Shown here in pieces: positions 9,936-51,911 of a stretch of DNA of 64,000 nucleotides. Position 1 is the first letter of the stretch; every line of letters begins with the position of its first letter. Both the position numbers and the translations under genes were made by a program. The stretch comes from Minisyncoccota bacterium (GTDB lineage Bacteria; Patescibacteriota; Minisyncoccia; Phycocordibacterales; UBA9973), in contig JAGOUR010000003.1 in assembly GCA_018061145.1 (NCBI GenBank), forward strand, positions 32,170 through 96,169, written 5' to 3'. The notes below the pieces were generated by a model. The model worked only from the letters and a program-made list of their open reading frames with translations, made no database searches and was not told the origin of the DNA.

Positions 9936-9942
9936 CACACTA

Positions 9943-9973: not shown

Positions 9974-10037
9974 ATTACTATTAGAAATAAGGTCGCGCTC
10001 TATCGTATAGAGCACAATTATTAATAGTTTTAAAATT

Positions 10038-10478
10038 ATGAAATTAAATTATAAAAAAGGTTTTACATTGATCGAATTGTTGGTTGTTATCGCAATCATC
10101 GGTATCCTCGCATCTATCGTTCTTACGTCTTTGACATCAGCAAAGAACAAAGCTAATCGTACAGCTGCAATGGCAAATCTACGTGGGGTTATGCCTGAAT
10201 TAATTATGTGTGCTGACGGTGGAGGTTATGGTTATACTGCGGGTGCTCCGACGGGGGGTACGACTTATGTTTGTCAGGCTGCTGCTACTGGAAATGCATT
10301 ACCAGCAAATTACATTGGACCAGTTTGGCCATCACTTGGTAATACAGGATGGGCATATGGAACACCTGTAGTTACTCCAGCTGGAACTCTTTCTGCGGCT
10401 ACTTCATACGTTTATACAGCTACAAAAACTGGAGAGGCAACTATTACTTGTACTTTCCCTACAGGAACCTGTTCATAG
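10038..10478 (+). CDS. pilA: Major type IV pilin (class III signal peptide)
   Basis: KKGF|TLIELLVVIAIIGILASIV prepilin leader with Gly-1 and Glu+5; followed by a terminator at about 10490-10525. Confidence 0.85.
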   Translation: MKLNYKKGFTLIELLVVIAIIGILASIVLTSLTSAKNKANRTAAMANLRGVMPELIMCADGGGYGYTAGAPTGGTTYVCQAAATGNALPANYIGPVWPSLGNTGWAYGTPVVTPAGTLSAATSYVYTATKTGEATITCTFPTGTCS

Positions 10479-10553
10479 TATTTTTTCTTAAAAAACCACC
10501 CATTTGGGTGGTTTTTGTTTTGAATGGTATCTGTATGATGATATAATAATAGT

Positions 10554-11363
10554 ATGATTACTCTTATTTATATATTTATTTTTTGTCTCGGTTGTATTAT
10601 TGGTAGCTTTTTGAATGTCGTTATTTATAGATTCAATAGTGGCAAGACACTAGGGGGGAGGTCTATGTGTATGACTTGTAGCAAGACTCTGTCTTGGTAT
10701 GAATTGATCCCTGTCATCAGTTTTTTATTCCAAAAAGGCAAGTGCAATACTTGCGCCACAAAAATCTCGCATCAGTATCCGATAGTAGAGTTCATCACTG
10801 GGGCTGTGTTCACAGCTGTGGCATACCATTTTTCTCCGCTCCTATCGTATGCTTTTAATCAGTACGTTCTATTGGTGACATTGTATACAATGATGTTTTC
10901 TTTGCTCATTGTCATATCTGTTTATGATATGCGCCACAAGATTATCCCAGACATGCTCGTATTTGTTTTTGGCATATTCGCTTTCTCTTCTATGTTTATA
11001 AATCAGGGTATCGGTTCTAGTATGCTTATACAGCCGACATTCCTATCTCTCATATCTGGTGTCGTGTATGCGTTACCTTTTGCATTGATATCTCTTGTGT
11101 CTAGGCAGAGGCTTATGGGTTTTGGTGATTCAAAAATGATCCTAGGTATAGGGTGGATGCTCGGATTGATGCAGGGTGGTGCTGCTATTATGTTGGCATT
11201 TTGGATTGGGACTCTCGCTAGTTTGGCTGTAATGTTTATCGGAAGGCATAAAGTTTCTATGAATACAGAAGTTCCATTTGGACCATTTCTAGCTATCAGT
11301 GCATTTTTAGTCTTTATATTTAATATAAATATCTTTGATTTAGCTTCTGTTTTTACATTTTAA
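10554..11363 (+). CDS. pilD: Prepilin peptidase PilD (A24 family)
   Basis: N-terminal CxxC...CxxC zinc motif; polytopic membrane protein with catalytic Asp motifs (YDMRHKIIPD, GFGDSKM). Confidence 0.85.
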   Translation: MITLIYIFIFCLGCIIGSFLNVVIYRFNSGKTLGGRSMCMTCSKTLSWYELIPVISFLFQKGKCNTCATKISHQYPIVEFITGAVFTAVAYHFSPLLSYAFNQYVLLVTLYTMMFSLLIVISVYDMRHKIIPDMLVFVFGIFAFSSMFINQGIGSSMLIQPTFLSLISGVVYALPFALISLVSRQRLMGFGDSKMILGIGWMLGLMQGGAAIMLAFWIGTLASLAVMFIGRHKVSMNTEVPFGPFLAISAFLVFIFNINIFDLASVFTF

Positions 11364-11369
11364 AATATT

Positions 11370-12068
11370 ATGCGTGGACATTTATTAAAATATAATAGAG
11401 GTATGACCCTAGTAGAATTACTGGTGGTGCTTTCTATTTTTGCTATTATATCTATGACTGTCGCTTTTAATTATAGTAGCTATAAATCTACAACATCTAC
11501 AAATGTCCTAGCTCAAGACGTAGCCCTGTCTATCCGTGAAGCCCAAGGTTATGCTATGGGTGTAAAATCCGTATCTACTGCAGGCAGTAGTATATTCCCT
11601 GGGTATGGTGTACATTTCAGTCCTAGTGGTAGTGGTCCGATATCTGGTAGTTCAAAATCTTTTATTCTTTTTGCTGATATACCATTTGATATTAATAATC
11701 CTCAAGACAAGGGTGATTCTGAATATGGGTTTCCTGTCTCTGCCACCCCAGATCAATCTGCTTGTGATGGGTCAGTGTTAGGTTCCGATAATGAGTGTAT
11801 CTCCGTCATCACTATATCCGGAGGGGATAAGATTCTAGGTGTCTGTGCTAACTCTGAATGCGAAGATTTAACCCCAAATCCAAATGGGTCTCTGGATATT
11901 GTGTTCCGTAGGCCAAATCCCGATGCTGTATTTTGTTATAGAGTGAATGCTAGTGATAGTTGTGCTCCTGAGATTTCTTCTGTTGGTATTATAGTTCAAT
12001 CAGAGTCAGATCAAAATATTTTAAAAAAAATAGTAGTCTGGAATACTGGCCAAATAAGCGTAGAATAA
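11370..12068 (+). CDS. Minor pilin / pseudopilin (prepilin-type N-terminal methylation domain)
   Basis: RGMTLVELLVVLSIFAIISM leader. Confidence 0.7.
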   Translation: MRGHLLKYNRGMTLVELLVVLSIFAIISMTVAFNYSSYKSTTSTNVLAQDVALSIREAQGYAMGVKSVSTAGSSIFPGYGVHFSPSGSGPISGSSKSFILFADIPFDINNPQDKGDSEYGFPVSATPDQSACDGSVLGSDNECISVITISGGDKILGVCANSECEDLTPNPNGSLDIVFRRPNPDAVFCYRVNASDSCAPEISSVGIIVQSESDQNILKKIVVWNTGQISVE

Positions 12069-12072
12069 TATA

Positions 12073-12690
12073 ATGACTAATTGCGAATTACTAATTACAA
12101 ATAAAGGGAAGAATCATATCGCCACTAAAAACAAGATGGGGGGTTTTACTCTGATCGAGTTAATGGTGTCTATGTCTATCTTCATGATTGTCATGATCAT
12201 GGCGCTAGGTGCTCTTGTGAATATAAGCAATGTAGCCAAGAAGTCTCGTGCACTCCATCAGGCTATGGACAATGTGAATTTTGCCATGGAGAGTATGACT
12301 AGATCTCTACGTACTGGTAGCAATTATGATTGCGGTAGTACAGATTTATCAACTCAAGATACAGATGATTGTCCTAGTGGGGAAGATTCTATTTCTTTTA
12401 TTTCTCAAAACAAGGGTTCGACTTCAAACAAGGATGTGGCTTATGAGTTGTCAAACAATGGTTCTTTACAAAAATGTGTTTTGAATAGTTTTAATTCAAA
12501 AGAGTGTATTAGTATGACTTCATCAAATGTTAAGATTGAGAATCTACAATTTTACGTGACTGGCTCCGACCCTATTCTGGATCAGATCCAGCCGAGTGTA
12601 TATATATCTATGAAGGGTAGCGTGTCTGTCGGATCTGAAAAAACAGAATTTGCTCTGCAGACTTTTGTCTCTCAGAGAAATAGCGAATAA
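12073..12690 (+). CDS. Minor pilin / pseudopilin
   Basis: GGFTLIELMVSMSIFMIVMI leader. Confidence 0.7.
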   Translation: MTNCELLITNKGKNHIATKNKMGGFTLIELMVSMSIFMIVMIMALGALVNISNVAKKSRALHQAMDNVNFAMESMTRSLRTGSNYDCGSTDLSTQDTDDCPSGEDSISFISQNKGSTSNKDVAYELSNNGSLQKCVLNSFNSKECISMTSSNVKIENLQFYVTGSDPILDQIQPSVYISMKGSVSVGSEKTEFALQTFVSQRNSE

Positions 12691-12693
12691 TTT

Positions 12694-13281
12694 ATGATTA
12701 AAAAGATAAATAAAAATAAAGGTTTTACTATACTAGAGACTCTCATCGCAGTCGTGCTCCTTTCTCTTGTCTTGAATTCAGTGTTGACCCTCATCTCTAG
12801 GAGTCTTTTTACTGCTCAGTATGCGAAGAATGACATGATCGCTTCCTATCTACTCCAAGAGTCTGCAGACTATATTCGCAATACTCGCGATACTCAGATG
12901 AAGATAGATCCAGCTGTCGGGTGGGGGAATTTTCTCGACTTTTATAATTTGAATGATTCAAATGGTCAGCAGACTAGGGTGTGTAAAATAAAAATATACC
13001 CTGGTTCAATTTCTAGCCCAACTGCACCCGAATGTTCCAATAATAATGGGAATAATGCACCAGATGTATTCTACTATCACAAGGACACTAGTGGTGGCAG
13101 TTATTATTCTACAGAAAAGGGGAGTGACTATGCTGACACTACTTTCAGCCGATTGGTTGTATTGTCAAAGAATAATAGTGGCGACGAGGTGGATGTTTCT
13201 ATTACGATAAATTGGAAAAATGGTAATAACTCTAAATCAAAATCTTACAATTTGAGCTTTACTGATTGGCAGACAAATTAA
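12694..13281 (+). CDS. Minor pilin / pseudopilin
   Basis: KGFTILETLIAVVLLSLVL leader. Confidence 0.7.
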   Translation: MIKKINKNKGFTILETLIAVVLLSLVLNSVLTLISRSLFTAQYAKNDMIASYLLQESADYIRNTRDTQMKIDPAVGWGNFLDFYNLNDSNGQQTRVCKIKIYPGSISSPTAPECSNNNGNNAPDVFYYHKDTSGGSYYSTEKGSDYADTTFSRLVVLSKNNSGDEVDVSITINWKNGNNSKSKSYNLSFTDWQTN

Positions 13282-25576: not shown

Positions 25577-26305
25577 TTATGCTAGTGTTGCTTTTCCGTC
25601 TCTGATCTTTGTATTCTTGATGATTTTCAGTATCTCATCTTCATCATCAGTGATAGTGTACAAATCAAAATCTTTTTCTGCGACAGTTTTGAATTTATCT
25701 ACCATTACACTCTTGATAGCATTTTGGAATGGCATCCAGAACTCTGTGCCTACTAGTATGATCGGCACATCATCTATTTTTTTTGTCTGGCGTAGTGTGA
25801 GCATCTCGAACAATTCATCGAATGTACCAAAACCTCCAGCAAAGAATAGACAAGCCTCAGTAGTGTAGGACATAGATATTTTTCTTGTGAAAAAGAAATA
25901 GAAGGGTACTACATCTGTGACATATGGATTGGTCTTTTGCTCAAAGGGGAGCTTGATAGTCAGGCCTACTGATTTTCCTCCTGCATCGTATCCTCCGCGA
26001 TTTGCCGCCTCCATGATACCACCACCTCCACCGGATAGAATCGCTGCACCTGTCTCCTCAGATATACGCTGTGCTATCCTGCGAGCTCTTATGTATTCTG
26101 GGTGATCTTCTGGTAGTCTTGCTGAACCGTAGAATGTGACAGATGGACTAAAAGACTGGATCATATCTATACCTTGTCTGAATTCCTCTTGGACCATACA
26201 TAGCTTTGTCTCTTCATTGTCCTCTCCGTATAATGTGACACATCCTTCACGGATGTCGTCTATTGTTAAATGTTTCGGTCTAAATACTTGTGGTTCTTCT
26301 TTCAT
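25577..26305 (-). CDS. LOG-family protein (TIGR00730; cytokinin riboside 5'-monophosphate phosphoribohydrolase-like)
   Basis: GGGGGIMEAANRG and FAGGFGTFDELFE (PGGxGTxxE-like) motifs. Confidence 0.8.
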   Translation of the reverse strand: MKEEPQVFRPKHLTIDDIREGCVTLYGEDNEETKLCMVQEEFRQGIDMIQSFSPSVTFYGSARLPEDHPEYIRARRIAQRISEETGAAILSGGGGGIMEAANRGGYDAGGKSVGLTIKLPFEQKTNPYVTDVVPFYFFFTRKISMSYTTEACLFFAGGFGTFDELFEMLTLRQTKKIDDVPIILVGTEFWMPFQNAIKSVMVDKFKTVAEKDFDLYTITDDEDEILKIIKNTKIRDGKATLA

Positions 26306-37207: not shown

Positions 37208-37293
37208 TAATAAAAAAACAATGGATTTATGATCCATTGTTTTTTTATTATTTTGTGGTAATATCACAAAAAACCCATTTTAATTTAATACGT

Positions 37294-37920
37294 ATGAAAA
37301 AACTTAGAATTGCCATTTTGTTTACTGGCGGCGGCAGCTCCGGTGTATTTCTGTCTGAGAAAGACCCGAATTGTAATAAAAATTATGAATTCGTTTGTGC
37401 TGTGTCGAGTGCTGAGGGTGCCAGTGGTATTTCGTATTTTCAAAAAATAGGAATACCTTGTATTGTAAAAGATTGGAAAAAATTTCGCACAGATCTTTCA
37501 TCAAAAGAAAAACGAGCCCAGTATTTTTTTGGAATTGAAACAATACTGGATACCTATCAGGTTGACTTGGTATTGCTCGCTGGATTTATGTTGATTATTC
37601 CTAATTCTTTTATTGATACTTATCATAAGAAAATTGTGAATGTTCACCCAGCAGATTTAAGGATATTGGGTGATGACAAAAAACCAAAGTACAGAGGCGA
37701 CAATGCTGTGGTGGGTGCCTTTATGGATGGCCAGTCTGAATTCTGTTCCACTATACATTATGTGGATCCCGGTGATTATGACTGCGGGGAGATAATCTGT
37801 GTATCTGATCCTTACAAGCCAGGTGATGTAAACGACCCTGTACTTATTCAGGGAAACATGAAAACACTTTGTGATGGACCGGCTTATCAAAAAGCCCTTG
37901 AAATCCTCTGTGGTAAGTAA
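37294..37920 (+). CDS. Formyltransferase-family protein (PurN / GAR-transformylase-like); start at the internal ATG
   Basis: LRIAILFTGGGS, LAGFM, NVHPADL (cf. NIHPSLLP), STIHYV motifs. Confidence 0.5.
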   Translation: MKKLRIAILFTGGGSSGVFLSEKDPNCNKNYEFVCAVSSAEGASGISYFQKIGIPCIVKDWKKFRTDLSSKEKRAQYFFGIETILDTYQVDLVLLAGFMLIIPNSFIDTYHKKIVNVHPADLRILGDDKKPKYRGDNAVVGAFMDGQSEFCSTIHYVDPGDYDCGEIICVSDPYKPGDVNDPVLIQGNMKTLCDGPAYQKALEILCGK

Positions 37921-37977: not shown

Positions 37978-38343
37978 TTGGCTTTTATGGATAAAAGGCA
38001 TATAATCTTATACATGGTAGACCTGAAGGAATTACAAAAGGAAGTGATGAGGAATAAGGTTGAGAAAGGTTTTAATACTACCGATATGGCCTTGGATTTT
38101 TGTCGTGCACATGAGGAGCTCTCTGAAGCATTTTCTAAATTCAATAAAAATCAAGACGGAGTAGCAGAGGAGCTTGCTGATGTGATGATATTCATACTCG
38201 GTATGTGTGAGATTCTGGGCTATGATTTGGAAAAAGAGTTAGTCAGAAAGATTGAGGTTAATAAACACAGAAAATATATTAAGACAAAATCTCCAGATGG
38301 CAAGGATATATTCATTAGAGAAAAAACAGATATTGATCCATAA
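37978..38343 (+). CDS. MazG-like nucleoside-triphosphate pyrophosphohydrolase (small all-alpha type)
   Basis: EELSEAFSK ... EELADVMIFILGMCEILGYDLE motif pair; 121 aa; bidirectional terminator at about 38346-38385. Confidence 0.55.
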   Translation: MAFMDKRHIILYMVDLKELQKEVMRNKVEKGFNTTDMALDFCRAHEELSEAFSKFNKNQDGVAEELADVMIFILGMCEILGYDLEKELVRKIEVNKHRKYIKTKSPDGKDIFIREKTDIDP

Positions 38344-38376
38344 AATAAAATACCCCCGACGAATGTCGGGGGTATT

Positions 38377-38874
38377 TTATTTTCTTTCGTAAATTGCAAA
38401 ATCTAGATTGTAGATATTTTCATCATCTGCCTCGAAATGCTCATTCTTTATTTTGCCCCATATGCTCTCATCTATAGTAGGGAAGTGTATCTCTGCCTCT
38501 TTATCTTCCATGTCGACATGGGTGATATATAATCTGTCTGCTTTTTCTATCATGATCTTGTATATCTGACCACCACCGATTATAAATATCTCTTCATCAA
38601 TAGTTGCTGTATTTTTTAGTAGCTCTTCTAAGTCATCTATGGAGTACACTATCTCCACTCCCTCTGGGTGGAATGCTTCATCTTTTGTCAGTACGATATT
38701 TCTGCGCCTAGGTAGTGGGCGACCTAGGGATTCAAAAGTCTTTTGGCCCATGACGATGGTCCGTCCACTGGTAGTCTCGCGGAAATGCTTCATATCACGA
38801 GGCAGGTCCCACAGCAGGGTATTTGCCTTGCCTAATTCATTATTGCGACCTATGGCTGCGATGAGTGATATCAT
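38377..38874 (-). CDS. folA: Dihydrofolate reductase
   Basis: MISLIAAIGRNNELG ... LPW ... TIVMGQKTFESLGRPLPRRRNIVLT; 165 aa. Confidence 0.9.
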   Translation of the reverse strand: MISLIAAIGRNNELGKANTLLWDLPRDMKHFRETTSGRTIVMGQKTFESLGRPLPRRRNIVLTKDEAFHPEGVEIVYSIDDLEELLKNTATIDEEIFIIGGGQIYKIMIEKADRLYITHVDMEDKEAEIHFPTIDESIWGKIKNEHFEADDENIYNLDFAIYERK

Positions 38875-38875
38875 T

Positions 38876-39709
38876 TTATAAAACTATATCCAATCCAGAT
38901 ATAGGAGCTAGTGGTTGATAATTTTTTGAAAATTCTGCAAACATTTCTTCTATTAGTGATTCGTCTTTTCCTCTTGATCTCTTTATCGCATCTTTTGGGA
39001 TCTGAATAGAAATATTTTGATGGTCGTTTACTCTACTCATTATCTCTTTTGCACCTTCGTAGTGATTGTCGTATATGTGGGCATTGGCTATGCTGTGAGT
39101 ATATATCCCAGGTTTTACACCTAGGTGCTCTGCTATCATGCACTGCAGTAATGCAAAACCAAAAGTATCAAAAGGTGTACCTAGCATGATGTCATTTGAT
39201 CTGATTATGTTATGCATATGCAATCTGCCACCAATAATATTTATAGTAAAAGCATAAGGGCAGGGTACATTCTTTTTTGGTGTACCACCGTATCCATCAT
39301 CTGCGGGATCCCATGTGATGACTACTCCGTGGCGTGAGCTCGGATCTTTTTCTAGTAGCTCTATGGCTTTACCTAGCTGGTCACGTCCAAAGTGGTGCTT
39401 CCATCTCCATCCATATGCAGAAGATAGTGTGCCATCTTCTTCTAAGAAAAGATCCCACATCTTTGTGAACTTGCGTAGAAATGTAGCATCCTTGTCTCCC
39501 TGTAGGAACCATACTTGTTCTGCTATTGGAGATTTTAGTGGTTGCTTGCGGAGAGTAAGCAAAGGGAAACCATCTTTTTCTATATCAATCTGAAAAGTTA
39601 CCCCAGGGAGGGCCTTTGTCTTGTGTCCAGTGCGAACATTCAATTCCTCGATTCCTTCATCCATGATTTTTCTGACTATATCTTGGTATATTGTGTCGAA
39701 TGTTGTCAT
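38876..39709 (-). CDS. thyA: Thymidylate-synthase (ThyA) family enzyme with Asp at the Asn177-equivalent specificity position and Asn at the Asp218-equivalent folate-contact position (E. coli numbering); substrate possibly not dUMP
   Basis: VRTGHKT, GFPLLTLRK, WFLQGD, AYGWRW, PC(P)YAF catalytic Cys, IIRSNDIMLGTPFD, AHIYDNH; aligned by eye against E. coli ThyA. Confidence 0.8.
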   Translation of the reverse strand: MTTFDTIYQDIVRKIMDEGIEELNVRTGHKTKALPGVTFQIDIEKDGFPLLTLRKQPLKSPIAEQVWFLQGDKDATFLRKFTKMWDLFLEEDGTLSSAYGWRWKHHFGRDQLGKAIELLEKDPSSRHGVVITWDPADDGYGGTPKKNVPCPYAFTINIIGGRLHMHNIIRSNDIMLGTPFDTFGFALLQCMIAEHLGVKPGIYTHSIANAHIYDNHYEGAKEIMSRVNDHQNISIQIPKDAIKRSRGKDESLIEEMFAEFSKNYQPLAPISGLDIVL

Positions 39710-39739
39710 ATTTTTGATTATACAATAGAATGTAAATAT

Positions 39740-40237
39740 ATGGAAAATATTAAATATCCTTATTTACCAGAAGGCAGAACTCTGTTGCATGTACCAGAGG
39801 GTAATAAATACATGGAAGCTGCTTGTCTTGTAGCTAAAAATGAATCATCTGACAAAAAGACTTCCACGGGGGTTGTCGTTGTGAATGATGAGGGGGTCAT
39901 CCTTGTTGGAGCAGCAAACAAATCAGCTTTAACAAATGATTTTCTGCTAAAAACTCATAAAGATTGGTGTATAAGAAAAAATCTAAAAATACCATCAGGA
40001 CAAAAGTATTGGTTATGTCCTGGTTGCGCTTCTAGTAAGTATCATGCAGAGAGTCATGCGATGCTGAAAGCTAAAAAAAGTAAAATAGATATTTCAAATT
40101 GTGATGTCTATCTATGGGGTCATTGGTGGTGTTGTAAAGATTGTTGGGATTCAATGATTGATTCAAAGATTCGCAATGTTTATTTGATGGAGGGTACTAC
40201 GAATGGTTTTAATAATTCAAATCCGATTAATAAATAA
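39740..40237 (+). CDS. dCMP deaminase (cytidine/deoxycytidylate deaminase zinc-binding family); start at the internal ATG
   Basis: HAESHAML (H-A-E zinc/catalytic motif) and LCPGCA (PCxxC) motif; 165 aa; terminator at 40243-40270. Confidence 0.8.
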   Translation: MENIKYPYLPEGRTLLHVPEGNKYMEAACLVAKNESSDKKTSTGVVVVNDEGVILVGAANKSALTNDFLLKTHKDWCIRKNLKIPSGQKYWLCPGCASSKYHAESHAMLKAKKSKIDISNCDVYLWGHWWCCKDCWDSMIDSKIRNVYLMEGTTNGFNNSNPINK

Positions 40238-40511
40238 ATTAAAAAGACATAGAAATATGTCTTTTTAATTTCTTAACATACTTTGTATTTAAGCGTACAT
40301 TCTAATGTATATATCTTTAACAATAAGAGGTTGGGTAAGTATCCCTATGTTTGTGTGCGTTACTATTTTTATGATAATAACGACACATTATTGTACAAGA
40401 AACAAATCATTGCACACTAAAAGCCAGATTTTCCAATGGAAATACTGGCTTTTTGTTTATCATTTTACTGTGATAGAATACCTATATTAATCCCTAATTT
40501 TTTTAATCTAT

Positions 40512-41693
40512 ATGGCAATGAAAGACAAACAGGTAGAAAAACTTATCAAAGCAGAAGACAAGCGTCAGAAGAGTGTGGTGAATCTGATCGCTTCTGAGAA
40601 CTATGTATCACGGGATGTGCTCGCCGCATTGGGTTCAACACTGACAAACAAATATGCCGAGGGTTACCCGGGCCGTCGCTACTATGGTGGCAATGAGATC
40701 ATAGATCAGGTAGAACAGCTCTGCATCGATCGTGCTCTAAAACTTTTCAAAATAAAAAACACAGAGTGGCATGTGAATGCTCAGCTACTATCCGGATCTC
40801 CTGCAAACTTTGCACTGTACTCCGCGCTCGTACCACTAGGGGAGAAGATTATGGGTATGAAGCTCACATCTGGTGGACATCTCACACACGGACATCCACT
40901 GTCTATGACGGGCAAGCTCTGGAAGCCTGTGCAATTCGAACTCGATGGAGAGAGTGAAGTTATAGATTACGATGCACTCATGGAGATAGCAAAGAAAGAG
41001 AAGCCGGCGATCATCGTCGCAGGATTCACTGCATATCCACGCACTGTAGATTTCAAAAAATTCCGTGCTATCGCTGATGCGTGCGGAGCGATACTTCACG
41101 TAGACATGTCTCACTTTGGTGGGCTCGTAGCTGGTGGGGCATACCCAAGTCCATTCCCATATGCGGACTCTGTGATGACTACTACTCACAAATCTCTCCG
41201 TGGTCCGAGACAGGCACTGCTATTTGTAAAAAAAGATGAAAGAGGTTTTGACAAGAAACTCGACAAGATGGTCATCCCTGGACTCTTTGGTGGTCCGCAC
41301 GAGAACAATATAGCAGCCGTGGCTATAGCACTGGCTGAAGCCTCAAAACCAGAATTCAAAAAGTATGCAAAGCAAGTAGTAAAGAACGCACAGACACTAG
41401 CAAAAGAATTGAAAAAACTCGGATGGCATATCATCTCTGGTGGTACAGACTCACATTTGATATTGGTGGATACATGGATGGGTGGTGCGGGCATTGCAGG
41501 GAGTGATGCGAGCAAGAAGCTAGAAAAGGCAGGCATCATAGTAAATATGAATACGATTCCAGGAGACAAGCGCTCTGTGATGGATCCATCTGGTATCCGC
41601 CTCGGTACATGCGCAGAGACTACTCGCGGAAGAAAGGAGAAGGATATGATAAAGATTGCAGTAAAGATGGATAAAATTCTAAGAGGGAAATAA
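40512..41693 (+). CDS. glyA: Serine hydroxymethyltransferase
   Basis: NLIASENYVSRDVLAALGS ... TNKYAEGYPGRRYYGG ... TTTHKSLRGPR (PLP Lys). Confidence 0.95.
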   Translation: MAMKDKQVEKLIKAEDKRQKSVVNLIASENYVSRDVLAALGSTLTNKYAEGYPGRRYYGGNEIIDQVEQLCIDRALKLFKIKNTEWHVNAQLLSGSPANFALYSALVPLGEKIMGMKLTSGGHLTHGHPLSMTGKLWKPVQFELDGESEVIDYDALMEIAKKEKPAIIVAGFTAYPRTVDFKKFRAIADACGAILHVDMSHFGGLVAGGAYPSPFPYADSVMTTTHKSLRGPRQALLFVKKDERGFDKKLDKMVIPGLFGGPHENNIAAVAIALAEASKPEFKKYAKQVVKNAQTLAKELKKLGWHIISGGTDSHLILVDTWMGGAGIAGSDASKKLEKAGIIVNMNTIPGDKRSVMDPSGIRLGTCAETTRGRKEKDMIKIAVKMDKILRGK

Positions 41694-41696
41694 TTT

Positions 41697-42110
41697 ATGA
41701 AAATATATTTCTCAGGGTCAATAAGCGGAGGGAGAGATTATCAGGCTTGGTACGATTTTATCGTAAAGCAGATTTCCAATTACGGAGAGGTTCTTTCTGA
41801 GTTTGTAGCAGACAAGAGTCTGACTAGTTATGGATCTGTGAATATGACTGACGAAGAGATATATAATAGAGATGTAAGGTTGATAGAGGAGTGCGATATC
41901 GTCATCGCTGATATCACCAATCCATCCCTTGGAGTCGGGTACGAGATCGCCTATGCGGAAAAATTAAATAAAAAGATTTATTGCTTGTATCTAAAAGTAG
42001 AAGGTAAAAAAGTTTCTGCTATGATTGTCGGAAATAAAGATTTTGAAATTCATCCGTATACATCAGAATCTGAAATAGTCGAAATCATAAAAAATATTTT
42101 TGAGAAATAG
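41697..42110 (+). CDS. DNPH1/Rcl-like 2'-deoxynucleoside 5'-phosphate N-glycosidase (nucleoside 2-deoxyribosyltransferase superfamily)
   Basis: YFSGSISGGRD ... DIVIADITNPSLGVGYEIAYA ... closely matches the recalled DNPH1 pattern YFCGSIRGGR ... VVVAEVTQPSLGVGYELGRA. Confidence 0.7.
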   Translation: MKIYFSGSISGGRDYQAWYDFIVKQISNYGEVLSEFVADKSLTSYGSVNMTDEEIYNRDVRLIEECDIVIADITNPSLGVGYEIAYAEKLNKKIYCLYLKVEGKKVSAMIVGNKDFEIHPYTSESEIVEIIKNIFEK

Positions 42111-42111
42111 T

Positions 42112-42600
42112 ATGGCACATATTCATGAAAAGATAGATTTTTGTGTAGAAGTATTTATTGTTCACAAAGACAAAGTCCTACTTCGTATGCATGATAAATA
42201 TAAATTCTGGTTATCAGTCGGTGGGCATATAGAACTCGACGAGGATCCAATACAGGCTGCATATCGTGAAGTAAAAGAGGAAGTAGGCTTGGATATTAAA
42301 ATAGCAGGATCTGCGGATGGAATAGACGAGGACAGCCCGGCAAATCGTGGATATAAATACCTTATACCACCTAGATACCTAGGCAGACACTCAGTATCTG
42401 GGACTCACGAGCACATTGCACTAGTATATTTTGCTACTTCAGATAGTGATGTAATTACGGATTCCATTCTTGATCATGAAAAGGGTGTCGAGACAAAATG
42501 GTTCACAATGGAAGAACTAGAGAATGCAAATCTTGTGCCCAATGTCTTATTTTATGCATCCGAAGCATTAAAAGAACTAGGAGATAAAAATGGAAAATAA
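42112..42600 (+). CDS. NUDIX hydrolase
   Basis: Nudix box GGHIELDEDPIQAAYREVKEEVGL. Confidence 0.7.
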   Translation: MAHIHEKIDFCVEVFIVHKDKVLLRMHDKYKFWLSVGGHIELDEDPIQAAYREVKEEVGLDIKIAGSADGIDEDSPANRGYKYLIPPRYLGRHSVSGTHEHIALVYFATSDSDVITDSILDHEKGVETKWFTMEELENANLVPNVLFYASEALKELGDKNGK

Positions 42601-43006
42601 TCATATCAAAGTAGGTGTAGGCGTGATGGTTTTTAAAGACGGAAAAGTTTTGATGGGTAAAAGAAAAGGTAAACATGGGGCAGGTGAGTATTCATGGCCT
42701 GGAGGACATTTAGAATATATGGAATCAATAATTGAATGTACCAAAAGAGAGGTTTTTGAAGAATGCGGAATAGAAATTAAAAATATTAAATTTCTTCGTT
42801 TGTTAAATATGAAAAAATATGACAAACATTATATAGATATCGCAATGACTGCAGATTGGGGCAGTGGGGAAGTTACACTAAAAGAACCAGAAAAATGCGA
42901 AGGTTGGGATTGGTATGACATAAATAATTTACCTGAACCTTTGTTTGCACCACTTCAGACTTATTTTGAAGCATTAAAAACGGGTAAGATTTTTTTTGAT
43001 AATTAA
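42590..43006 (+). CDS. NUDIX hydrolase
   Basis: Nudix box GGHLEYMESIIECTKREVFEECGI. Confidence 0.75.
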   Translation: MENNHIKVGVGVMVFKDGKVLMGKRKGKHGAGEYSWPGGHLEYMESIIECTKREVFEECGIEIKNIKFLRLLNMKKYDKHYIDIAMTADWGSGEVTLKEPEKCEGWDWYDINNLPEPLFAPLQTYFEALKTGKIFFDN

Positions 43007-43727
43007 TATGAAAAAACAAAAAGGCAAACTCATAGTAATAGATGGTACAGATGGTAGTGGCAAGGCTACACAGGTGGATTTATTGATGAAGAGATTAAAG
43101 GGGGATGGCTACACTGTAAAGACTGTAGATTTTCCAGAATACTATCAGAACTTTTTTGGTAAATTCATCGGGCACTGTCTTTCCGAGCAGTACTACAATT
43201 TTGTGAATGTTCACCCAAAGATCGCCTCGGTCCTGTACGCGGCAGATAGATTTGAGTCCAAGGGGCAGATGGAAGATTGGCTCGCAAAGGGGTATGTAGT
43301 GATTGCGAATAGATATGTCAGTGCAAATCAGATCCACCAGGGTGGAAAGATAAAGAATACAAAAAAGCGCCAAGCATTCATCGAGTGGCTCGATGAGATG
43401 GAGCATGAAGTATTCAAGATTCCAAGACCAGATGTGATATTTTACTTAAGTCTTCCTATAGCTATCAGCAAGGCATTAATGGCCGAGAGAAATAAAAAGG
43501 ATGCACGCGCTTATCTGGGTAAGAAGCAGGATGTACATGAAAAGGATAATAATTTTCTCGAGAATTCTCGGGCTAGTGCACTGTGGCTAGCCAAGACACA
43601 AAAGAATTATGTGCAGGTGGATTGCTCTGTGAAGAATACCCTGCGCACCCGAGAGGATATACACGAGGAAGTGTACGCCAAAGCAATCAAATCCCTCCCA
43701 AAGATCAAAAAGGCATCAAAGAATTAG
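42996..43727 (+). CDS. tmk: Thymidylate (dTMP) kinase-like nucleoside-monophosphate kinase
   Basis: P-loop IVIDGTDGSGKATQ, DRY-like motif NRYVSANQIHQG, lid region; 243 aa (longer than canonical Tmk). Confidence 0.7.
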   Translation: MIINMKKQKGKLIVIDGTDGSGKATQVDLLMKRLKGDGYTVKTVDFPEYYQNFFGKFIGHCLSEQYYNFVNVHPKIASVLYAADRFESKGQMEDWLAKGYVVIANRYVSANQIHQGGKIKNTKKRQAFIEWLDEMEHEVFKIPRPDVIFYLSLPIAISKALMAERNKKDARAYLGKKQDVHEKDNNFLENSRASALWLAKTQKNYVQVDCSVKNTLRTREDIHEEVYAKAIKSLPKIKKASKN

Positions 43728-43786
43728 ACTATTGACAATATGTGATATAGGGGTAGTATGAAGGTAAAATTAAATCCCAATATATT

Positions 43787-44125
43787 ATGAAACCCGAGAT
43801 AAAGCCGTACTTAGTACCGGTTGCCGCATTCTTTTTGTACAAGATGACACAACAGAAGCTATTTTCAGATGAATTTGATGGAATTCTATTTAGGAGAGAC
43901 TTTCTCTCAATAGATGAGTACAATGAATTTCCAAAGATTACTGATGGAGAGTTATTTGAAAAAAGACTCCTCGATGCTCGTGAAGAATTATCGGAAAAAG
44001 AATTTCATGATTTTATCGCTACTTTTCATTGCCTCCCTTATTACATATTAGAAGATGATGAAAAGGAAAAATTAAAGCAAATTATGGATGTTCTGTTTAC
44101 CACTAACCACTTCCGTAAACCGTAA
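43787..44125 (+). CDS. Hypothetical protein (112 aa)
   Basis: ORF plus terminator at 44128-44162. Confidence 0.3.
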   Translation: MKPEIKPYLVPVAAFFLYKMTQQKLFSDEFDGILFRRDFLSIDEYNEFPKITDGELFEKRLLDAREELSEKEFHDFIATFHCLPYYILEDDEKEKLKQIMDVLFTTNHFRKP

Positions 44126-44192
44126 AGGAAAAGTCCTCTCGATCAAAAGAGAGGACTTTTTGTTTGCCTTTTTATGTGTATAATTACTTTAT

Positions 44193-44687
44193 ATGAAGAT
44201 TCCAGTAGTAAATGAACAAGATGAGATAATAGGGTATAAAGATAGATTAGACAGGAGCCCTGAGGATATTATTCGTATAACTTCTATATGGATAACTGAT
44301 GAAAATGGAGATATTTTAATGCAACAAAGAAAATTTAATAAAAAAAATAATCCGGGTAAATGGAGTGCCGCAGTGGCAGGAACAGTAGAAGAAAGTGAGA
44401 CATATGAGAGTAATGCGTATAAAGAAATGGAGGAAGAAATCGGAGTGAGTGATGTACCTCTTACTATATCAAAAAAATTGTACGGAGAGACAGCTGGAGG
44501 TAAAAGATTTTTGCAAATATATACTGCAAAATTCTCAAAAGATAAAAAATTGACAGCTCAAGAGAATGAAGTGGAACAATTAAAATGGTTCACAAAAGAA
44601 GAACTATTGAGAGAGTTAAAAGAAAACCCAAATGATTTTGTCGGATCTATGCATAGCAAAGAAGTAAAAGAGTTATTTTTATCATGA
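44193..44687 (+). CDS. NUDIX hydrolase
   Basis: Nudix box GTVEESETYESNAYKEMEEEIGV. Confidence 0.6.
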   Translation: MKIPVVNEQDEIIGYKDRLDRSPEDIIRITSIWITDENGDILMQQRKFNKKNNPGKWSAAVAGTVEESETYESNAYKEMEEEIGVSDVPLTISKKLYGETAGGKRFLQIYTAKFSKDKKLTAQENEVEQLKWFTKEELLRELKENPNDFVGSMHSKEVKELFLS

Positions 44688-45112
44688 AAATCAAAATTAA
44701 GAGAATTGAAAAAGAATTACCGTTACCTTTGTATCAGACTACTGGTGCTGTAGCTTTTGATTTGTATTCACGTGTGGATATGGTTGTCTTACCAAAGACA
44801 TTGGTGAGATTGCCGACAAATGTTATCATTGAGACTCCAAAAGGGTACATGCTAGAAATCAAGGATCGTTCAAGTACCTTAAAGAAGAAGGGTCTATTGG
44901 TAAGTACTGGCTACATAGATAATGATTTTTGCGGAGAAGCCGATGAGATACTTTTACAGGTTTACAACATTACAGACAGTGAAGTCGTTGTTGAGAAAGG
45001 GGAGAGATTAGGCCAAGGTGTTTTTGTTAAAATAGAAGTTGCAGAATGGGAGGAAGTTGATATTATGGAAGGGGTAAATCGTGGTGGTTTTGGTACGACC
45101 GGTAATAAATAA
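44684..45112 (+). CDS. dut: dUTP diphosphatase
   Basis: dUTPase motif III GYIDNDFCGE and surrounding beta-strand pattern; 142 aa. Confidence 0.7.
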   Translation: MKIKIKRIEKELPLPLYQTTGAVAFDLYSRVDMVVLPKTLVRLPTNVIIETPKGYMLEIKDRSSTLKKKGLLVSTGYIDNDFCGEADEILLQVYNITDSEVVVEKGERLGQGVFVKIEVAEWEEVDIMEGVNRGGFGTTGNK

Positions 45113-47881: not shown

Positions 47882-50800
47882 ATGATCATGGAAGAAAAAA
47901 ATACAAAATCACAAAATGCAGAGCGTGAGGAAAAGATACTATCGTTTTGGAAAGAGAATGATACTTTTAAAAAGAGTATAGAAAAGGAGGCCCCAAAAGG
48001 GAAGTACGTCTTCTACGATGGGCCACCTTTTGCTACAGGACTACCACACTATGGCCATATTCTAGGATCTACTGCAAAAGATGTCGTAGGTAGATATCAG
48101 ACTATGCGCGGTTACTCTGTACCTCGTAGATGGGGTTGGGACTGTCATGGTCTACCGATAGAGAATATCGTAGAAAAAGACCTGGGTATCTCTGGTAAAA
48201 AAGCTATCGAGGAATACGGCATAGAGAAGTTCTCTGAGCATGCTCGTAGCAAGGTATTGACCTATGTATCAGAATGGAAAAAGACTGTCGACCGCATGGG
48301 GCGATGGGTGGATTTCGATAATTCATACAAGACTATGGATAATAGTTTTATCGAGAGTGTCTGGTGGGCCCTGGGTGAGCTGAATAACAAGGGACTCCTA
48401 TACGAAGGTGTGCGAGTACTCGCATACTGTTCACGATGTGAGACTCCGATTGCAAACTCGGAGATTGCCATGGACAACAGCTACAAAGATATAAATGATA
48501 TTTCTGTATATGTAAAATTTAGATTAACTCCTACGCAGAAAATGCACCCTCTCTTTAACGCGAGTACGCTAACCCGTTCGGATGCATTTTCTGCTCCGGA
48601 AATATTCCTTTTGGCTTGGACTACTACTCCATGGACGCTACCGGGTAATACTGCGATAGCGATAAATAAAGATTTGCAGTATGTATATGTAAAAAACAAT
48701 GTTCCAGATAAAGATGAGACATTCATAATCGCAAAAGATTTATTTGAAAATCTAAAAACAAAATTCACAGATCCAGAAATCATAAAAGAAGTTTCTGGTA
48801 ATGAATTAGTGGGATTATCATACGAACCGGTTTTTGATTATTATAAAAATGCAGATATGCCAAATAAAGAAAATATTTGGAAAGTTTGGCATGCGGATTT
48901 TATAACAGCAGATGCAGGTACTGGTATCGCTCACGAAGCTCCGGCTTTTGGTGAGGATGATATGAATCTAGCAAAGGAAAACAATATTCCATTTATCCGC
49001 CACGTAGAACCAAACGGAGTATTTTCTGCAGAAGTGACTGATTTTGCTGGTCAATATGTAAAACCAAAAAGTGAAGATGAAAAAATAAGATTTCAAGCTG
49101 ATATAAATATCATAAAATATTTGCAAGAGAGTGGGGCGTATTTTGATAAAGAAAAAATAAAGCACTCATATCCACACTGCTACCGATGTGATACACCACT
49201 ACTGTACTACGCACTACCTTCATGGTTTGTGAATATTCAAAAAGTAAAAGCAGATCTCCTAGAAAAAGCTGAATCAATGAACTGGGTCCCAGCACACTTA
49301 AAAGATGGAAGATTCCATCATACAATGGAAAATGCACCGGATTGGACTATCTCTCGCAATAGATATTGGGCCAGTCCTTTGCCTATCTGGAAATCAGAGA
49401 GCGGGCAGATGATGTTCACTAGCTCTGTTGATGATCTAAAATCAAAAGTTAAAAAATCTGGCAACAAATACTTTGTAATGCGTCATGGGGAGTCAACTCA
49501 CAATACAGATGGTGTATGTAGTTCTGTTGCGGATTACCCCCATCACCTAACAGAAAAGGGTAAAGAAGTAGTTTCTGAAAATGCATCTATTTTGAAATCA
49601 GAGAATATATCGATGATATATTGTTCACCTTTTATTAGAACAAAGGAGACTGCAGAGATAGTTGCAGATTTAATTGGTTTTGATAAAAGTAAAATTATCT
49701 ATGATGATAGAATTACTGAATATAAATTTGGTGATTTTAATGCTAAGTTATTTAGTGATTATCTAAAATGGCGCAAAGAAATTGGTGACACTGTAGATCT
49801 ATGTCCTCCAAACGGAGAGAGTGTTGTTGATGCTCGTCGAAGATTTTCTTCATTTTATTATGACATAGATAATATACATAAAAATGAGAATATATTAGTT
49901 ATTACACATGGTATTGGCTTGGAAACCTTAGATGCTGTTAAGAATGTATATAACGATGAAGTCATGTGGAAAAATTGGAAGATGAATTCTGTATTGCCTG
50001 GACATTTTGTTAAGTTTGATTTTTATCCTCTTCCTCACAATGCGAATTACGAACTTGATCTACACCGCCCATATATAGACAGTATCGTCTTGGTGGATGA
50101 AAATGGTACAGAGTACAAGAGAATCCCCGAGGTTATCGACTGCTGGTTTGAATCTGGCTCCATGCCATTTGCTCAGGATCACTATCCATTCGAGAATCCA
50201 GAGTGGAAACAAAATAATTTCCCTGGTGGATTTGTAGCTGAATATATAGCTCAGACTAGAACATGGTTCTACTATACCCATGCTATATCTACTATGCTAT
50301 TTGGAGAGGCTCCATTTAAGAATGTAGTCACTACGGGTACAGTGCTAGCCGAGGACGGTAGCAAGATGAGTAAATCAAAAAACAATTATCCAGATCCATG
50401 GATACTATTTGATAAGTATGGAGTGGATGCTCTACGATTTTATCTGATGTCTTCTACTCTGATGAAGGGTGAAGATGTGAACTTCTCTGAGAAGGGGGTC
50501 CAGGATATCGCAAGCAAGATCGTATCTCGTCTAGAAAATGTAGCTACATTCTACGAGCTCTACAGAGATGTATCTATTGAAAATGGTGAACTTGATTTAG
50601 AAAAAAATACAAATGTACTGGATCAATGGATCCTAGCTCGATTAAGCTCCCTCGTGTCGGAGGTGACTGTATCTATGGATGCATACGATATGGCCGGAGC
50701 TACGAGACCTTTTGAATTGTTTATAGAAGATCTTTCTACTTGGTATCTACGACGCTCTCGTGATCGTCTAAAGGATGGTGACGTGAATGCAAAGAAGACA

Positions 50801-51421
50801 CTATACTACGTACTGAAAACTACAGTTTCTGTATTGGCGCCATTCGCACCATTTATATCAGAGAGTGTATGGCAAAAATTAAAGAATGAAAACGATGCAG
50901 AATCTGTACATCTTTGTGATTGGCCAGCATTCTCTTATGAAAATTCTGATGTTGTAGGTATGATGCAGCAAGTTCGCGATGTAGTCACACTAGGTCTGCA
51001 GTCTCGTCAAAAAGCTGGTGTCCCTGTGCGCCAGCCTCTTGGAAAATTTAGTATACCTATGGAATTCACGTCTTTGTATACAGAGATTATTGAAGATGAA
51101 TTGAATGTAAAAGAAATTGTCTGTGACACTACACTATCTGATGTATTTATGAGTTTTGATATCACATCTGAACTGAAAAAAGAGGGTCAGTATCGTGAAT
51201 TTGTCCGTGCAGTTCAAGACCTACGAAAAAAGACAGGGCTTATGCCTGCTGATGTAGTGACTCTATATGTGCAGTGTGGCGAGATAGAAAAAGATATTGT
51301 AAATACATTTCTCCCTGAATTCCAAAAGACTACAGGATTAAGGGAGGTAGTATGGGGTGATACATCTGGCGATGAAATAAAAATCGGAGATCTAGTATTT
51401 GTAGTAAAGATAGAAAAATAA
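47882..51421 (+). CDS. ileS: Isoleucine--tRNA ligase carrying an inserted histidine-phosphatase (PGAM-like) domain of about 220 aa
   Basis: HYGHILG (HIGH), WTISRNRYWASPLPIW, VIDCWFESGSMPF, GSKMSKSKNN (KMSKS). An RHGESTHN plus ITHG domain lies between the WxSRQRxWG and DVxDxWFxSG motifs. Total 1179 aa. Confidence 0.95.
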   Translation: MIMEEKNTKSQNAEREEKILSFWKENDTFKKSIEKEAPKGKYVFYDGPPFATGLPHYGHILGSTAKDVVGRYQTMRGYSVPRRWGWDCHGLPIENIVEKDLGISGKKAIEEYGIEKFSEHARSKVLTYVSEWKKTVDRMGRWVDFDNSYKTMDNSFIESVWWALGELNNKGLLYEGVRVLAYCSRCETPIANSEIAMDNSYKDINDISVYVKFRLTPTQKMHPLFNASTLTRSDAFSAPEIFLLAWTTTPWTLPGNTAIAINKDLQYVYVKNNVPDKDETFIIAKDLFENLKTKFTDPEIIKEVSGNELVGLSYEPVFDYYKNADMPNKENIWKVWHADFITADAGTGIAHEAPAFGEDDMNLAKENNIPFIRHVEPNGVFSAEVTDFAGQYVKPKSEDEKIRFQADINIIKYLQESGAYFDKEKIKHSYPHCYRCDTPLLYYALPSWFVNIQKVKADLLEKAESMNWVPAHLKDGRFHHTMENAPDWTISRNRYWASPLPIWKSESGQMMFTSSVDDLKSKVKKSGNKYFVMRHGESTHNTDGVCSSVADYPHHLTEKGKEVVSENASILKSENISMIYCSPFIRTKETAEIVADLIGFDKSKIIYDDRITEYKFGDFNAKLFSDYLKWRKEIGDTVDLCPPNGESVVDARRRFSSFYYDIDNIHKNENILVITHGIGLETLDAVKNVYNDEVMWKNWKMNSVLPGHFVKFDFYPLPHNANYELDLHRPYIDSIVLVDENGTEYKRIPEVIDCWFESGSMPFAQDHYPFENPEWKQNNFPGGFVAEYIAQTRTWFYYTHAISTMLFGEAPFKNVVTTGTVLAEDGSKMSKSKNNYPDPWILFDKYGVDALRFYLMSSTLMKGEDVNFSEKGVQDIASKIVSRLENVATFYELYRDVSIENGELDLEKNTNVLDQWILARLSSLVSEVTVSMDAYDMAGATRPFELFIEDLSTWYLRRSRDRLKDGDVNAKKTLYYVLKTTVSVLAPFAPFISESVWQKLKNENDAESVHLCDWPAFSYENSDVVGMMQQVRDVVTLGLQSRQKAGVPVRQPLGKFSIPMEFTSLYTEIIEDELNVKEIVCDTTLSDVFMSFDITSELKKEGQYREFVRAVQDLRKKTGLMPADVVTLYVQCGEIEKDIVNTFLPEFQKTTGLREVVWGDTSGDEIKIGDLVFVVKIEK

Positions 51422-51482: not shown

Positions 51483-51911
51483 ATGATTACAGAATACTCT
51501 GCGGGATTTATCCTCGTACTACGCAAGGATGGCGAGGAAGATAAATTTCTATTAATAAAACAATTGTCTGGCAATTGGAGTTTTCCAAAGGGGCATCTCG
51601 AAGAAGGGGAAGATTCTAAAACTGCTGCTATTCGAGAACTGCAGGAGGAGACAGGTATTACAGAATTTAAATTTGCTGAACTACCTACTCTAATGGAAGA
51701 ATATGATTTCAATCATAGTGGAGACATACGCCACAAGGTGAATGAATATTTTATCGCATATGCAAAACAAGTCGATGTGAAAATCCAAGAAGGTGAAATA
51801 GTAGACTTTAAGTGGGTGACATACGATCAGGCTTTGGAAACTTTTACATTCGATGATCAAAAGGTGGTTCTGAAAGAAGCTAAAAAATATTTAGATAATT
51901 TAAATAAATAA
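51483..51911 (+). CDS. NUDIX hydrolase (Ap4A-hydrolase-like size)
   Basis: Nudix box GHLEEGEDSKTAAIRELQEETGI. Confidence 0.7.
   Translation: MITEYSAGFILVLRKDGEEDKFLLIKQLSGNWSFPKGHLEEGEDSKTAAIRELQEETGITEFKFAELPTLMEEYDFNHSGDIRHKVNEYFIAYAKQVDVKIQEGEIVDFKWVTYDQALETFTFDDQKVVLKEAKKYLDNLNK

Follow-up and report, generated by a model that had tools for sequence, protein, structure and literature searches.

The window analyzed here, a stretch of 64,000 nucleotides from a Minisyncoccota bacterium (contig JAGOUR010000003.1), is an ordinary Patescibacteria (Nomurabacteria/Paceibacteria) chromosome segment. Between positions 37,978 and 45,112, it carries a 13-gene island in which the central gene encodes a homologue of thymidylate synthase (ThyA) that is predicted to methylate deoxycytidine monophosphate (dCMP) rather than deoxyuridine monophosphate (dUMP). 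Together with an adjacent deaminase, a dihydrofolate reductase (DHFR) and a pyrophosphatase, this enzyme probably constitutes a route to deoxythymidine monophosphate (dTMP) in which methylation precedes deamination. The genes of the island are listed below (positions in the window; aa, amino acids; PDB, Protein Data Bank).

37978..38343, plus strand: MazG-like all-alpha nucleoside-triphosphate pyrophosphatase, 121 aa (Pfam PF12643, 30 bits)
38377..38874, minus strand: dihydrofolate reductase, folA (Pfam PF00186, 186 bits, full length)
38876..39709, minus strand: ThyA-family enzyme, predicted dCMP 5-methyltransferase (Thymidylat_synt PF00303, 190 bits)
39737..40237, plus strand: divergent dCMP-deaminase-fold zinc deaminase, 166 aa (Pfam PF00383 dCMP_cyt_deam_1, 45 bits)
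40512..41693, plus strand: serine hydroxymethyltransferase (SHMT), glyA (Pfam PF00464, 496 bits)
41697..42110, plus strand: DNPH1/Rcl-like 2'-deoxynucleoside 5'-phosphate N-hydrolase (Nuc_deoxyrib_tr; phmmer match to Rcl/DNPH1)
42100..42600, plus strand: Nudix hydrolase A (Pfam PF00293; best PDB match 3f6a, an uncharacterized Nudix protein)
42590..43006, plus strand: Nudix hydrolase B, NUDX1/NUDT15 type, nucleoside-triphosphate diphosphatase-like (Pfam PF00293)
42996..43727, plus strand: dTMP kinase-like deoxynucleoside monophosphate (dNMP) kinase, tmk (Pfam PF02223 Thymidylate_kin, 70 bits)
43787..44125, plus strand: 112-aa open reading frame (ORF), module membership uncertain (no Pfam, NCBIfam or PHROG match)
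44193..44687, plus strand: Nudix hydrolase C (Pfam PF00293; PDB matches YfcD 2fkb, 9.5e-12, and DR_0079 1q27, 5e-7)
44684..45112, plus strand: dUTPase, dut (Pfam PF00692, 64 bits)
51483-51911: fourth Nudix gene, outside the island

The start codon of folA lies 2 nucleotides past the thyA stop codon, while the deaminase gene is transcribed divergently from thyA, with 27 base pairs between the two start codons. All the island genes named in the original prediction, which had been made from the sequence alone, were found where it had placed them and in the families it had given (by Pfam, and by phmmer for DNPH1), including the three Nudix genes, or four when the one at 51483-51911 is counted.

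Residues and relatives of the ThyA homologue

The original prediction drew attention to an Asp read, by eye, where thymidylate synthases carry Asn177. Proper alignment by two methods places Asp at this position: in HMMER alignments to solved thymidylate synthases, the query stretch 'RSNDIMLGTPFD' lands on 'RSADIFLGVPFN', and the same result was obtained on aligning the query to E. coli ThyA with MAFFT. The query has 277 aa compared with 264 for E. coli ThyA, the alignment coming within about 10 residues of both C-termini. It retains Cys146, Arg21, Arg126, Arg166, Ser167, Asp169, Glu58, Trp80, Tyr94, His207 and Tyr209, among which the catalytic Cys, Arg166/Ser167/Asp169 and Tyr94 had been recognized correctly from the start. 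It differs by Asn177 to Asp, His147 to Pro, Leu143 to Asn, Gln165 to Ile, Trp83 to Phe and Arg127 to His. E. coli numbering is used throughout, Asp177, Pro147 and Asn143 being D181, P151 and N147 of the query. A further replacement, of the Asp of the GGDTHLY motif by Asn, had been numbered Asp218 in error; the residue is Asp205 of E. coli, and the change is not diagnostic because several canonical Asn177 enzymes also show Asn there. Human Asp218 itself, which we take to be the equivalent of E. coli Asp169, is conserved in the query.

The protein is thus a ThyA-family member by its fold, its catalytic Cys146 and its phosphate-binding arginines, but Asn177 and its canonical partners Gln165 and His147 are replaced by Asp177, Ile165 and Pro147. 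It is aligned by phmmer to PDB thymidylate synthases at 6.6e-40. With seven of the eight NCBIfam models for thymidylate synthase, its score is about half the cutoff (e.g. 153.8 bits against a cutoff of 327), and a single model, TIGR03284, is passed (128.8 bits, cutoff 108.35).

It has been shown that the N177D change shifts the substrate from dUMP to dCMP (PMC8670742; PMC13326640), and N177D mutants of the E. coli and L. casei thymidylate synthases are cited in the same two papers as turning to dCMP. No two positions discriminate better between modified-cytosine and unmodified phage contigs than 177 and 147 (PMC8670742). The product is marked by other positions: an acidic residue at 143 is characteristic of hydroxymethylases, such as T4 gp42 and MilA, and D169N of 5-hydroxy-dCMP synthases (PMC13326640). 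The query has the combination of the phage Xp12 enzyme, with Asp177 and Pro147, a non-acidic residue at 143 and Asp169 intact; around positions 143-147 it reads KKNVPCP, compared with QKNVPCP in Xp12 and MSDFMC in T4 gp42. For the Xp12 enzyme and five related enzymes from metagenomes, production of 5-methyldeoxycytidine (5mdC) has been demonstrated in vivo (bioRxiv 10.1101/2024.12.05.627091).

Sequence searches led to the same relatives. BLASTP scores were 188 bits for the ThyA homologue of phage PaMx74, 181 for that of Xp12, 120 for E. coli ThyA and 34 for T4 gp42. Among all phage records, the best matches belong to the Xp12/PaMx74 group (36-42% identity, E of about 1e-50 to 1e-55), with T4-like thymidylate synthases far behind (about 1e-33). 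In a distance-based neighbor-joining tree, drawn without support values, the query, Xp12 and PaMx74 fall in a clade with Asp177, Pro147 and Asn143, apart from the Asn177/His147/Leu143 clade that contains E. coli ThyA, and T4 gp42 is remote. Asp177 was found in 113 of 113 readable sequences among the 120 closest database homologues, the other seven lying outside the search pattern. When the nearest relatives in 1.8 billion proteins were represented by 150 sequences at 50% identity, Asp177 was found in 126 of these and Asn177 in 22. Asp177 co-varies with Pro147 (canonical His), Asn143 (Leu), Phe83 (Trp), Gln or His127 (Arg) and a hydrophobic residue at 165 (Gln), and the Xp12 and PaMx74 homologues share Asp177, Pro147, Asn143, Phe83, the hydrophobic 165 and KNVPCP. 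Judged by these alignments, Asp177 is no chance substitution, and the enzyme is best classified with the Xp12-type dCMP methyltransferases, as a putative new branch found in cells. Within the Asp177 clade, fusions were found of a dCMP-deaminase domain to ThyA (P0144) and of a PRA-PH pyrophosphatase to ThyA (P0153), which link the steps of the pathway proposed below. An HNH endonuclease domain is likewise found fused to ThyA in this clade (P0148).

One genome per GTDB species was scanned with two peptide patterns, and 228 genomes with a relative were obtained, a lower bound biased toward close relatives; 80 of them were listed and their loci retrieved. By annotation, these 80 are from Patescibacteria-type lineages, uncultured bacteria or 'uncultured Candidatus Saccharibacteria', the named lineages being Nomurabacteria, Paceibacterota, Vogel-, Taylor-, Kaiser- and Moraniibacteria and Parcubacteria. 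The ThyA homologue of the window is itself 100% identical to a protein annotated in a 'Candidatus Pacebacteria' genome. Asn143, Cys146, Asp169 and Asp177 are present in all 80 loci and Pro147 in 79.

Two enzyme types were set aside on the basis of these residues: a T4-type dCMP hydroxymethylase, by the Asn instead of an acidic residue at the Leu143 position and by the 34 bits to gp42, and a 5-hydroxy-dCMP synthase of the RB69/DLP3 type (D169N), by the Asp169 kept in 80 of 80 genomes.

Because of the Asp177 pattern, the Xp12-like Asn143, the intact Asp169 and the adjoining DHFR gene, the query is predicted, with fairly high confidence in this one step, to be a dCMP 5-methyltransferase. The expectation that it acts on dCMP thus gains support from a multi-residue pattern and a shared clade, beyond the one residue first noticed. 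Of the two products then envisaged, 5-methyl-dCMP is retained and 5-hydroxymethyl-dCMP is disfavored, since residue 143 is Asn as in Xp12 and not acidic as in T4 gp42 and MilA, and since the full-length DHFR gene that follows thyA so closely implies that the folate is oxidized, i.e., that the methylation is reductive.

An enzyme accepting both dCMP and dUMP, or one forming 5-hydroxymethyl-dCMP or another C5 derivative for small-molecule or DNA modification, would nonetheless be compatible with some of these data. Asp177 alone does not fix the product, as it is also present in T4 gp42 and MilA (PMC13326640), and Asn143 is neither bulky-hydrophobic nor acidic. Furthermore, a DNPH1-like glycosidase beside a cytosine-specific ThyA homologue recalls the MilA/MilB pair of mildiomycin biosynthesis (see PMC5175136 and PMC4081090). 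However, such a glycosidase gene is found in just about 14 of the 80 loci, and Xp12, with the same KNVPCP motif, makes 5mdC. With the coupled DHFR, the distance to gp42 and the conserved Asp169 also opposed to it, we regard this alternative as distinctly improbable.

A conserved four-gene module with its own deaminase

Gene content was mapped by local tblastn in the 80 loci. The deaminase gene is immediately upstream of thyA, on the opposite strand, in 77 of them, and folA was detected in 73, mostly just downstream of thyA. Exactly one of three unrelated nucleoside-triphosphate (NTP) pyrophosphatase families is encoded beside thyA and folA in 77 loci (MazG-like in 38, DCD-like in 38, NTPase_I-T in one; never together), and the three loci without one end less than 400 base pairs downstream of thyA. 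The other genes are less regular: glyA, on the deaminase side, in 43 loci; tmk in about 23; the DNPH1-like gene often right after that of the deaminase; dut in about 12; Nudix A in about 5 to 6, Nudix B in about 7 to 8 and Nudix C in about one; and the 112-aa ORF in one. The conserved core therefore consists of the deaminase, ThyA with Asp177, DHFR and one NTP pyrophosphatase and is essentially invariant, while the remainder of the 13-gene island was added around it in a lineage-specific way, with the DNPH1-like, Nudix, tmk and dut genes as looser companions. The island had been described as a coherent toolkit for modified pyrimidines. The view of a coherent deoxynucleotide toolkit, of a kind known otherwise from phages, is supported, phage Xp12 having the same four parts; conservation is confined to the genes of the core.

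In the window and in its relatives, the module is flanked by ribosomal-protein and tRNA-synthetase genes. Since the flanks in relatives include ribosomal-protein operons, NusG/SecE and MurB, the module appears to be a resident, housekeeping one and not part of a prophage. Other genes of the window encode LigA, GatA, a release factor, FtsEX, CTP synthase, several tRNA synthetases, RecO and SSB. No thyX, second thyA, tdk, dcd or ribonucleotide reductase gene was found within the 64-kb window.

The deaminase scores 22.9 bits against the NCBIfam ComEB model (cutoff 219), no sequence match was found in the PDB or in all phage records, and its homologues come from Patescibacteria only. It has an invariant catalytic His/Glu and CxxC zinc site (H103/E105/C133/C136) and a second His/Cys3 cluster (H74/C78/C94/C97). 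An AlphaFold2 model (predicted local distance difference test, pLDDT, 82.7) has dCMP deaminases as its best fold matches, with a template modeling (TM) score of about 0.5, ranked as follows: the PBCV-1 bifunctional dCMP/deoxycytidine triphosphate (dCTP) deaminase 7fh4, human DCTD 2w4l, the S. mutans and S-TIM5 enzymes and T4 cd 1vq2. Compared with dCMP deaminases such as ComEB, DCTD and T4 cd, it thus has the HAE and CxxC motifs and the fold, and lies outside the family at the sequence level. Judged by its model, it is an active-looking, highly diverged dCMP-deaminase-fold enzyme, paired one-to-one with the Asp177 ThyA.

As for the pyrophosphatase, the MazG-like protein of the window matches a PHROG pyrophosphatase family at 1.7e-13, has the acidic motifs EELSE...EELAD and shows weak PDB matches to the MazG-type proteins 1vmg and 7ody. 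Its probable role would be to hydrolyze dCTP to dCMP and pyrophosphate, thereby supplying the substrate of the ThyA homologue. In sister loci (L049-L087), its place is occupied by a DCD-like protein of 215 aa (e.g. L069:7339-8001, plus strand) that aligns to E. coli and B. halodurans Dcd. In 37 of 37 alignable copies, the catalytic deaminase Glu138 is replaced by Pro, one more copy being a contig-end fragment, and the dUTPase-like motif IVDSGYEGQ is retained. These proteins look like pyrophosphatases unable to deaminate and may form an uncharacterized dCTP pyrophosphatase family.

Among the looser companions, the DNPH1-like protein matches rat Rcl (2khz) at 9e-26 and human DNPH1 at 1e-23 with phmmer; with its GSIxGGR (GSIRGGR) phosphate loop and GVGYE catalytic Glu aligned with Rcl/DNPH1, its assignment to this family by sequence is solid. 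A LOG/'lysine decarboxylase'-family protein (PF03641) encoded at 25577-26305 (minus strand), from a family that includes nucleotide 5'-monophosphate N-glycosidases, would be the second nucleotide N-glycosidase-type gene of the window. Nudix B aligns to Arabidopsis NUDX1 at 5e-28 and to human NUDT15 at 1e-20. The match of Nudix C to Deinococcus DR_0079, an enzyme that prefers cytosine di- and triphosphates, is too weak (5e-7) for substrate assignment. The tmk product scores 81.6 bits with NCBIfam TIGR00041, slightly below the cutoff of 83.25. Two small island ORFs, the 112-aa one and another of 61 aa (40305-40490, plus strand), have no family match; both are called as genes in the sister contig L006.

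A PurN-like formyltransferase is encoded directly upstream of the MazG-like gene (37237-37920, plus strand; 76 bits with Formyl_trans_N, and 75 bits with the PurN model, whose cutoff is 150). It brings the folate-dependent enzymes beside the module to three, and tblastn found no counterpart in the 80 related loci. Further away, the window contains a complete-looking type IV pilus cluster (2535-13281, plus strand) with PilM, PilB/PilT-type ATPases, PilC, a prepilin peptidase and four pilin-like genes. Such clusters are usual in Patescibacteria and are commonly assigned a role in DNA uptake, by which deoxynucleotides might be obtained. An isoleucyl-tRNA synthetase of 1179 aa (47882-51421, plus strand) has a His_Phos_1 histidine-phosphatase domain at residues 531-680 (2.5e-25), with an RHGES.HN motif, located between the two stretches matched by the catalytic-domain model.

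A predicted route to thymidylate

From the gene identities, the residue pattern, the clade membership and the gene linkage, we infer a set of enzyme activities and a direction of flux. The module would perform the conversion of dCTP to dTMP in a changed order, with methylation before deamination, a reading toward which we lean with modest confidence. In the first step, the NTP pyrophosphatase (MazG-like here, and in sister lineages DCD-like without the deaminase Glu, or NTPase_I-T) would convert dCTP to dCMP. The Asp177 ThyA would then methylate C5 of dCMP with 5,10-methylene-tetrahydrofolate, yielding 5-methyl-dCMP and dihydrofolate, and the translationally coupled DHFR together with SHMT would regenerate 5,10-methylene-tetrahydrofolate. 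The dCMP-deaminase-fold enzyme would convert the 5-methylcytosine nucleotide, as mono- or triphosphate, to the thymine nucleotide, and Tmk would take the product to deoxythymidine diphosphate (dTDP). Genomic DNA would remain canonical. The DNPH1-like, Nudix and Dut proteins could, as a guess, perform accessory clean-up, either of dUMP and deoxyuridine triphosphate (dUTP), unusable by this ThyA, or of stray 5-methyl-deoxycytidine (5-methyl-dC) nucleotides. The order of hydrolysis, methylation and deamination suits a protein of the Dcd family from which the deaminase residue is missing. If the ThyA homologue is specific for dCMP, the deaminase must favor the methylated substrate, as otherwise dCMP would be drained to dUMP that ThyA cannot use. 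The deaminase is provisionally assigned as a 5-methyl-dC nucleotide deaminase. Of the two functions originally suggested for the locus, a modified-pyrimidine system and an unusual thymidylate route from dCMP through 5-methyl-dCMP to dTMP, the latter is the one favored here.

Several observations weigh against this proposal. In the first place, the gene set fits equally well the canonical order, in which the pyrophosphatase yields dCMP, the deaminase forms dUMP and ThyA methylates dUMP despite Asp177, as in the ordinary route of Gram-positive bacteria and eukaryotes; pyrophosphatase, dCMP-deaminase fold, ThyA, DHFR, SHMT, Tmk and Dut would all find their place, and the residue pattern of ThyA and its clade are the only points in favor of another order. 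The presence of dut in the island implies that dUMP is made, for which the proposed route has no consumer. Arg127 is His in the clade of the query while Xp12 keeps Arg, and a direct sequence comparison of the deaminase with that of Xp12 gave nothing significant. Finally, the characterized phage 5-methylcytosine (5mC) deaminase acts on the triphosphate, 5-methyl-dCTP, and not on the monophosphate (bioRxiv 10.1101/2024.12.05.627091).

For the canonical order, it can be added that Dut would supply dUMP, that TIGR03284 is passed and that the literature on Patescibacteria treats their thyA as ordinary. Yet Asp177, Pro147 and Asn143 are invariant or nearly so across the 80 genomes, the clade is shared with the experimentally verified Xp12 dCMP methylase, the N177D mutants cited above switch to dCMP and the remaining seven NCBIfam models are far from being reached. 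The deaminase would also be oddly divergent for a housekeeping dCMP deaminase. On these grounds, the canonical order appears unlikely.

A second alternative concerns the fate of 5-methyl-dCMP, which might be phosphorylated to 5-methyl-dCTP and incorporated, so that some or all of the genomic cytosine would be replaced before replication, as in Xp12. The deaminase would then divert part of the pool to thymidine nucleotides while the pyrophosphatase depletes dCTP. The four-part module is that of Xp12 and PaMx74, whose DNA carries 5mC for C, the characterized phage deaminase acts on 5-methyl-dCTP, the top structural match of the Patescibacteria deaminase is the bifunctional PBCV-1 dCMP/dCTP deaminase, and a dNMP kinase gene lies within the island. 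In one related locus, a 183-aa P-loop protein is encoded next to the module (L057:7952-8503, minus strand), with a weak match, in its N-terminal part only, to the T4 gp1-type deoxynucleotide monophosphate kinases (PF21448, 29 bits). However, replacement of a base wholesale before replication is not known from any cellular organism, and the published entry of 5mC into E. coli DNA made use of a co-expressed promiscuous phage dNMP kinase (bioRxiv 10.1101/2024.12.05.627091). The module is moreover present in Kaiserbacteria of apparently high guanine-plus-cytosine (GC) content (numbers in contig names, e.g. 58_22 and 55_37, being read as about 54-58% GC), which argues against strong decay of 5mC to T, and the several adjoining nucleotide hydrolases would suit pool sanitation more than incorporation. 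This alternative is therefore given little weight, and thymidylate synthesis by methylation and subsequent deamination remains the preferred interpretation.

To our knowledge, thymidylate formation by methylation of dUMP, through ThyA or ThyX, is treated as universal in cells, and we know of no proposal for methylating dCMP and then deaminating it other than for 5mC-containing phages. No paper on an Asp177 ThyA in Patescibacteria or in any cellular organism was found in a search that covered part of the journals. What is new here is that the module is chromosomal across a large bacterial radiation, where it apparently serves as a housekeeping route to thymidylate, and that it has a deaminase family of its own and a pyrophosphatase slot filled in three ways. 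If the prediction is correct, a large bacterial lineage methylates dCMP and deaminates it afterwards, and the annotations 'thymidylate synthase' and 'dCMP deaminase' across Patescibacteria are wrong in substrate. The module would represent a natural permutation of pathway order, one part of which is the loss of the deaminase residue from a Dcd-family enzyme, and would provide new 5-methylcytosine-nucleotide deaminases and dCMP methylases as tools. It would also raise the testable question of pre-replicative 5mC DNA in any cell. Were 5mC indeed incorporated, wholesale pre-replicative base replacement would be seen for the first time in a cellular organism, and a DNA-scavenging epibiont could thereby distinguish its own DNA from that of its host.

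Comparison with known systems

The closest counterpart is the module of phages Xp12 and PaMx74, which shares with that of Patescibacteria the ThyA residue pattern, the tree clade and the four adjacent enzyme types; in Xp12, a PRA-PH pyrophosphatase, ThyA, a 5mC deaminase of the dCMP-deaminase family and DHFR are encoded in a row. For Xp12-type phages, it has been proposed that thymidine nucleotides derive from 5-methyl-dC nucleotides (bioRxiv 10.1101/2024.12.05.627091). In contrast to these phages with 5mC DNA, the Patescibacteria module is chromosomal and occurs in at least 228 species. Its deaminase belongs to a separate, Patescibacteria-only family without detectable similarity to that of Xp12, the slot of the phage PRA-PH protein is taken by a protein of the MazG-like, the DCD-like (Glu to Pro) or the NTPase_I-T family, and residue 127 is His instead of Arg.

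With canonical ThyA (EC 2.1.1.45) and DHFR, the Patescibacteria pair has in common the PF00303 fold, the catalytic residues, a similar length and the coupled folA. It differs by Asp177/Pro147/Asn143/Ile165/Phe83/His127, by its separate clade and by missing most equivalog cutoffs.

In E. coli, dCTP is converted to dUTP by Dcd, to dUMP by Dut and to dTMP by ThyA, and bifunctional Dcd-Dut enzymes are also known. The end points and the three chemistries are the same, and half of the related loci have a Dcd-family protein as their pyrophosphatase. However, the order in Patescibacteria would be to hydrolyze, methylate and deaminate; their Dcd-like proteins lack Glu138, and deamination is assigned to a zinc deaminase of another fold.

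The pairing of T4 gp42 with the gp56 dCTPase is similar in that a cytosine-specific ThyA homologue with Asp177 is fed by a dCTP-hydrolyzing enzyme, and MilB, the partner of MilA, is an N-glycosidase of the nucleoside 2-deoxyribosyltransferase family, as is the DNPH1-like gene product. Unlike T4 gp42 and MilA, the Patescibacteria enzyme has Asn143 in place of Asp or Glu and a coupled DHFR, and its setting is neither a phage nor an antibiotic gene cluster.

In mammals, the dCMP deaminase DCTD clears salvaged 5-methyl-dCMP to dTMP, and the human enzyme is among the best structural matches of the Patescibacteria deaminase. The conversion by an enzyme of this fold is thus established chemistry. In mammals, however, it serves as a salvage safeguard without being the principal supply of dTMP, and no dCMP methylase is paired with DCTD.

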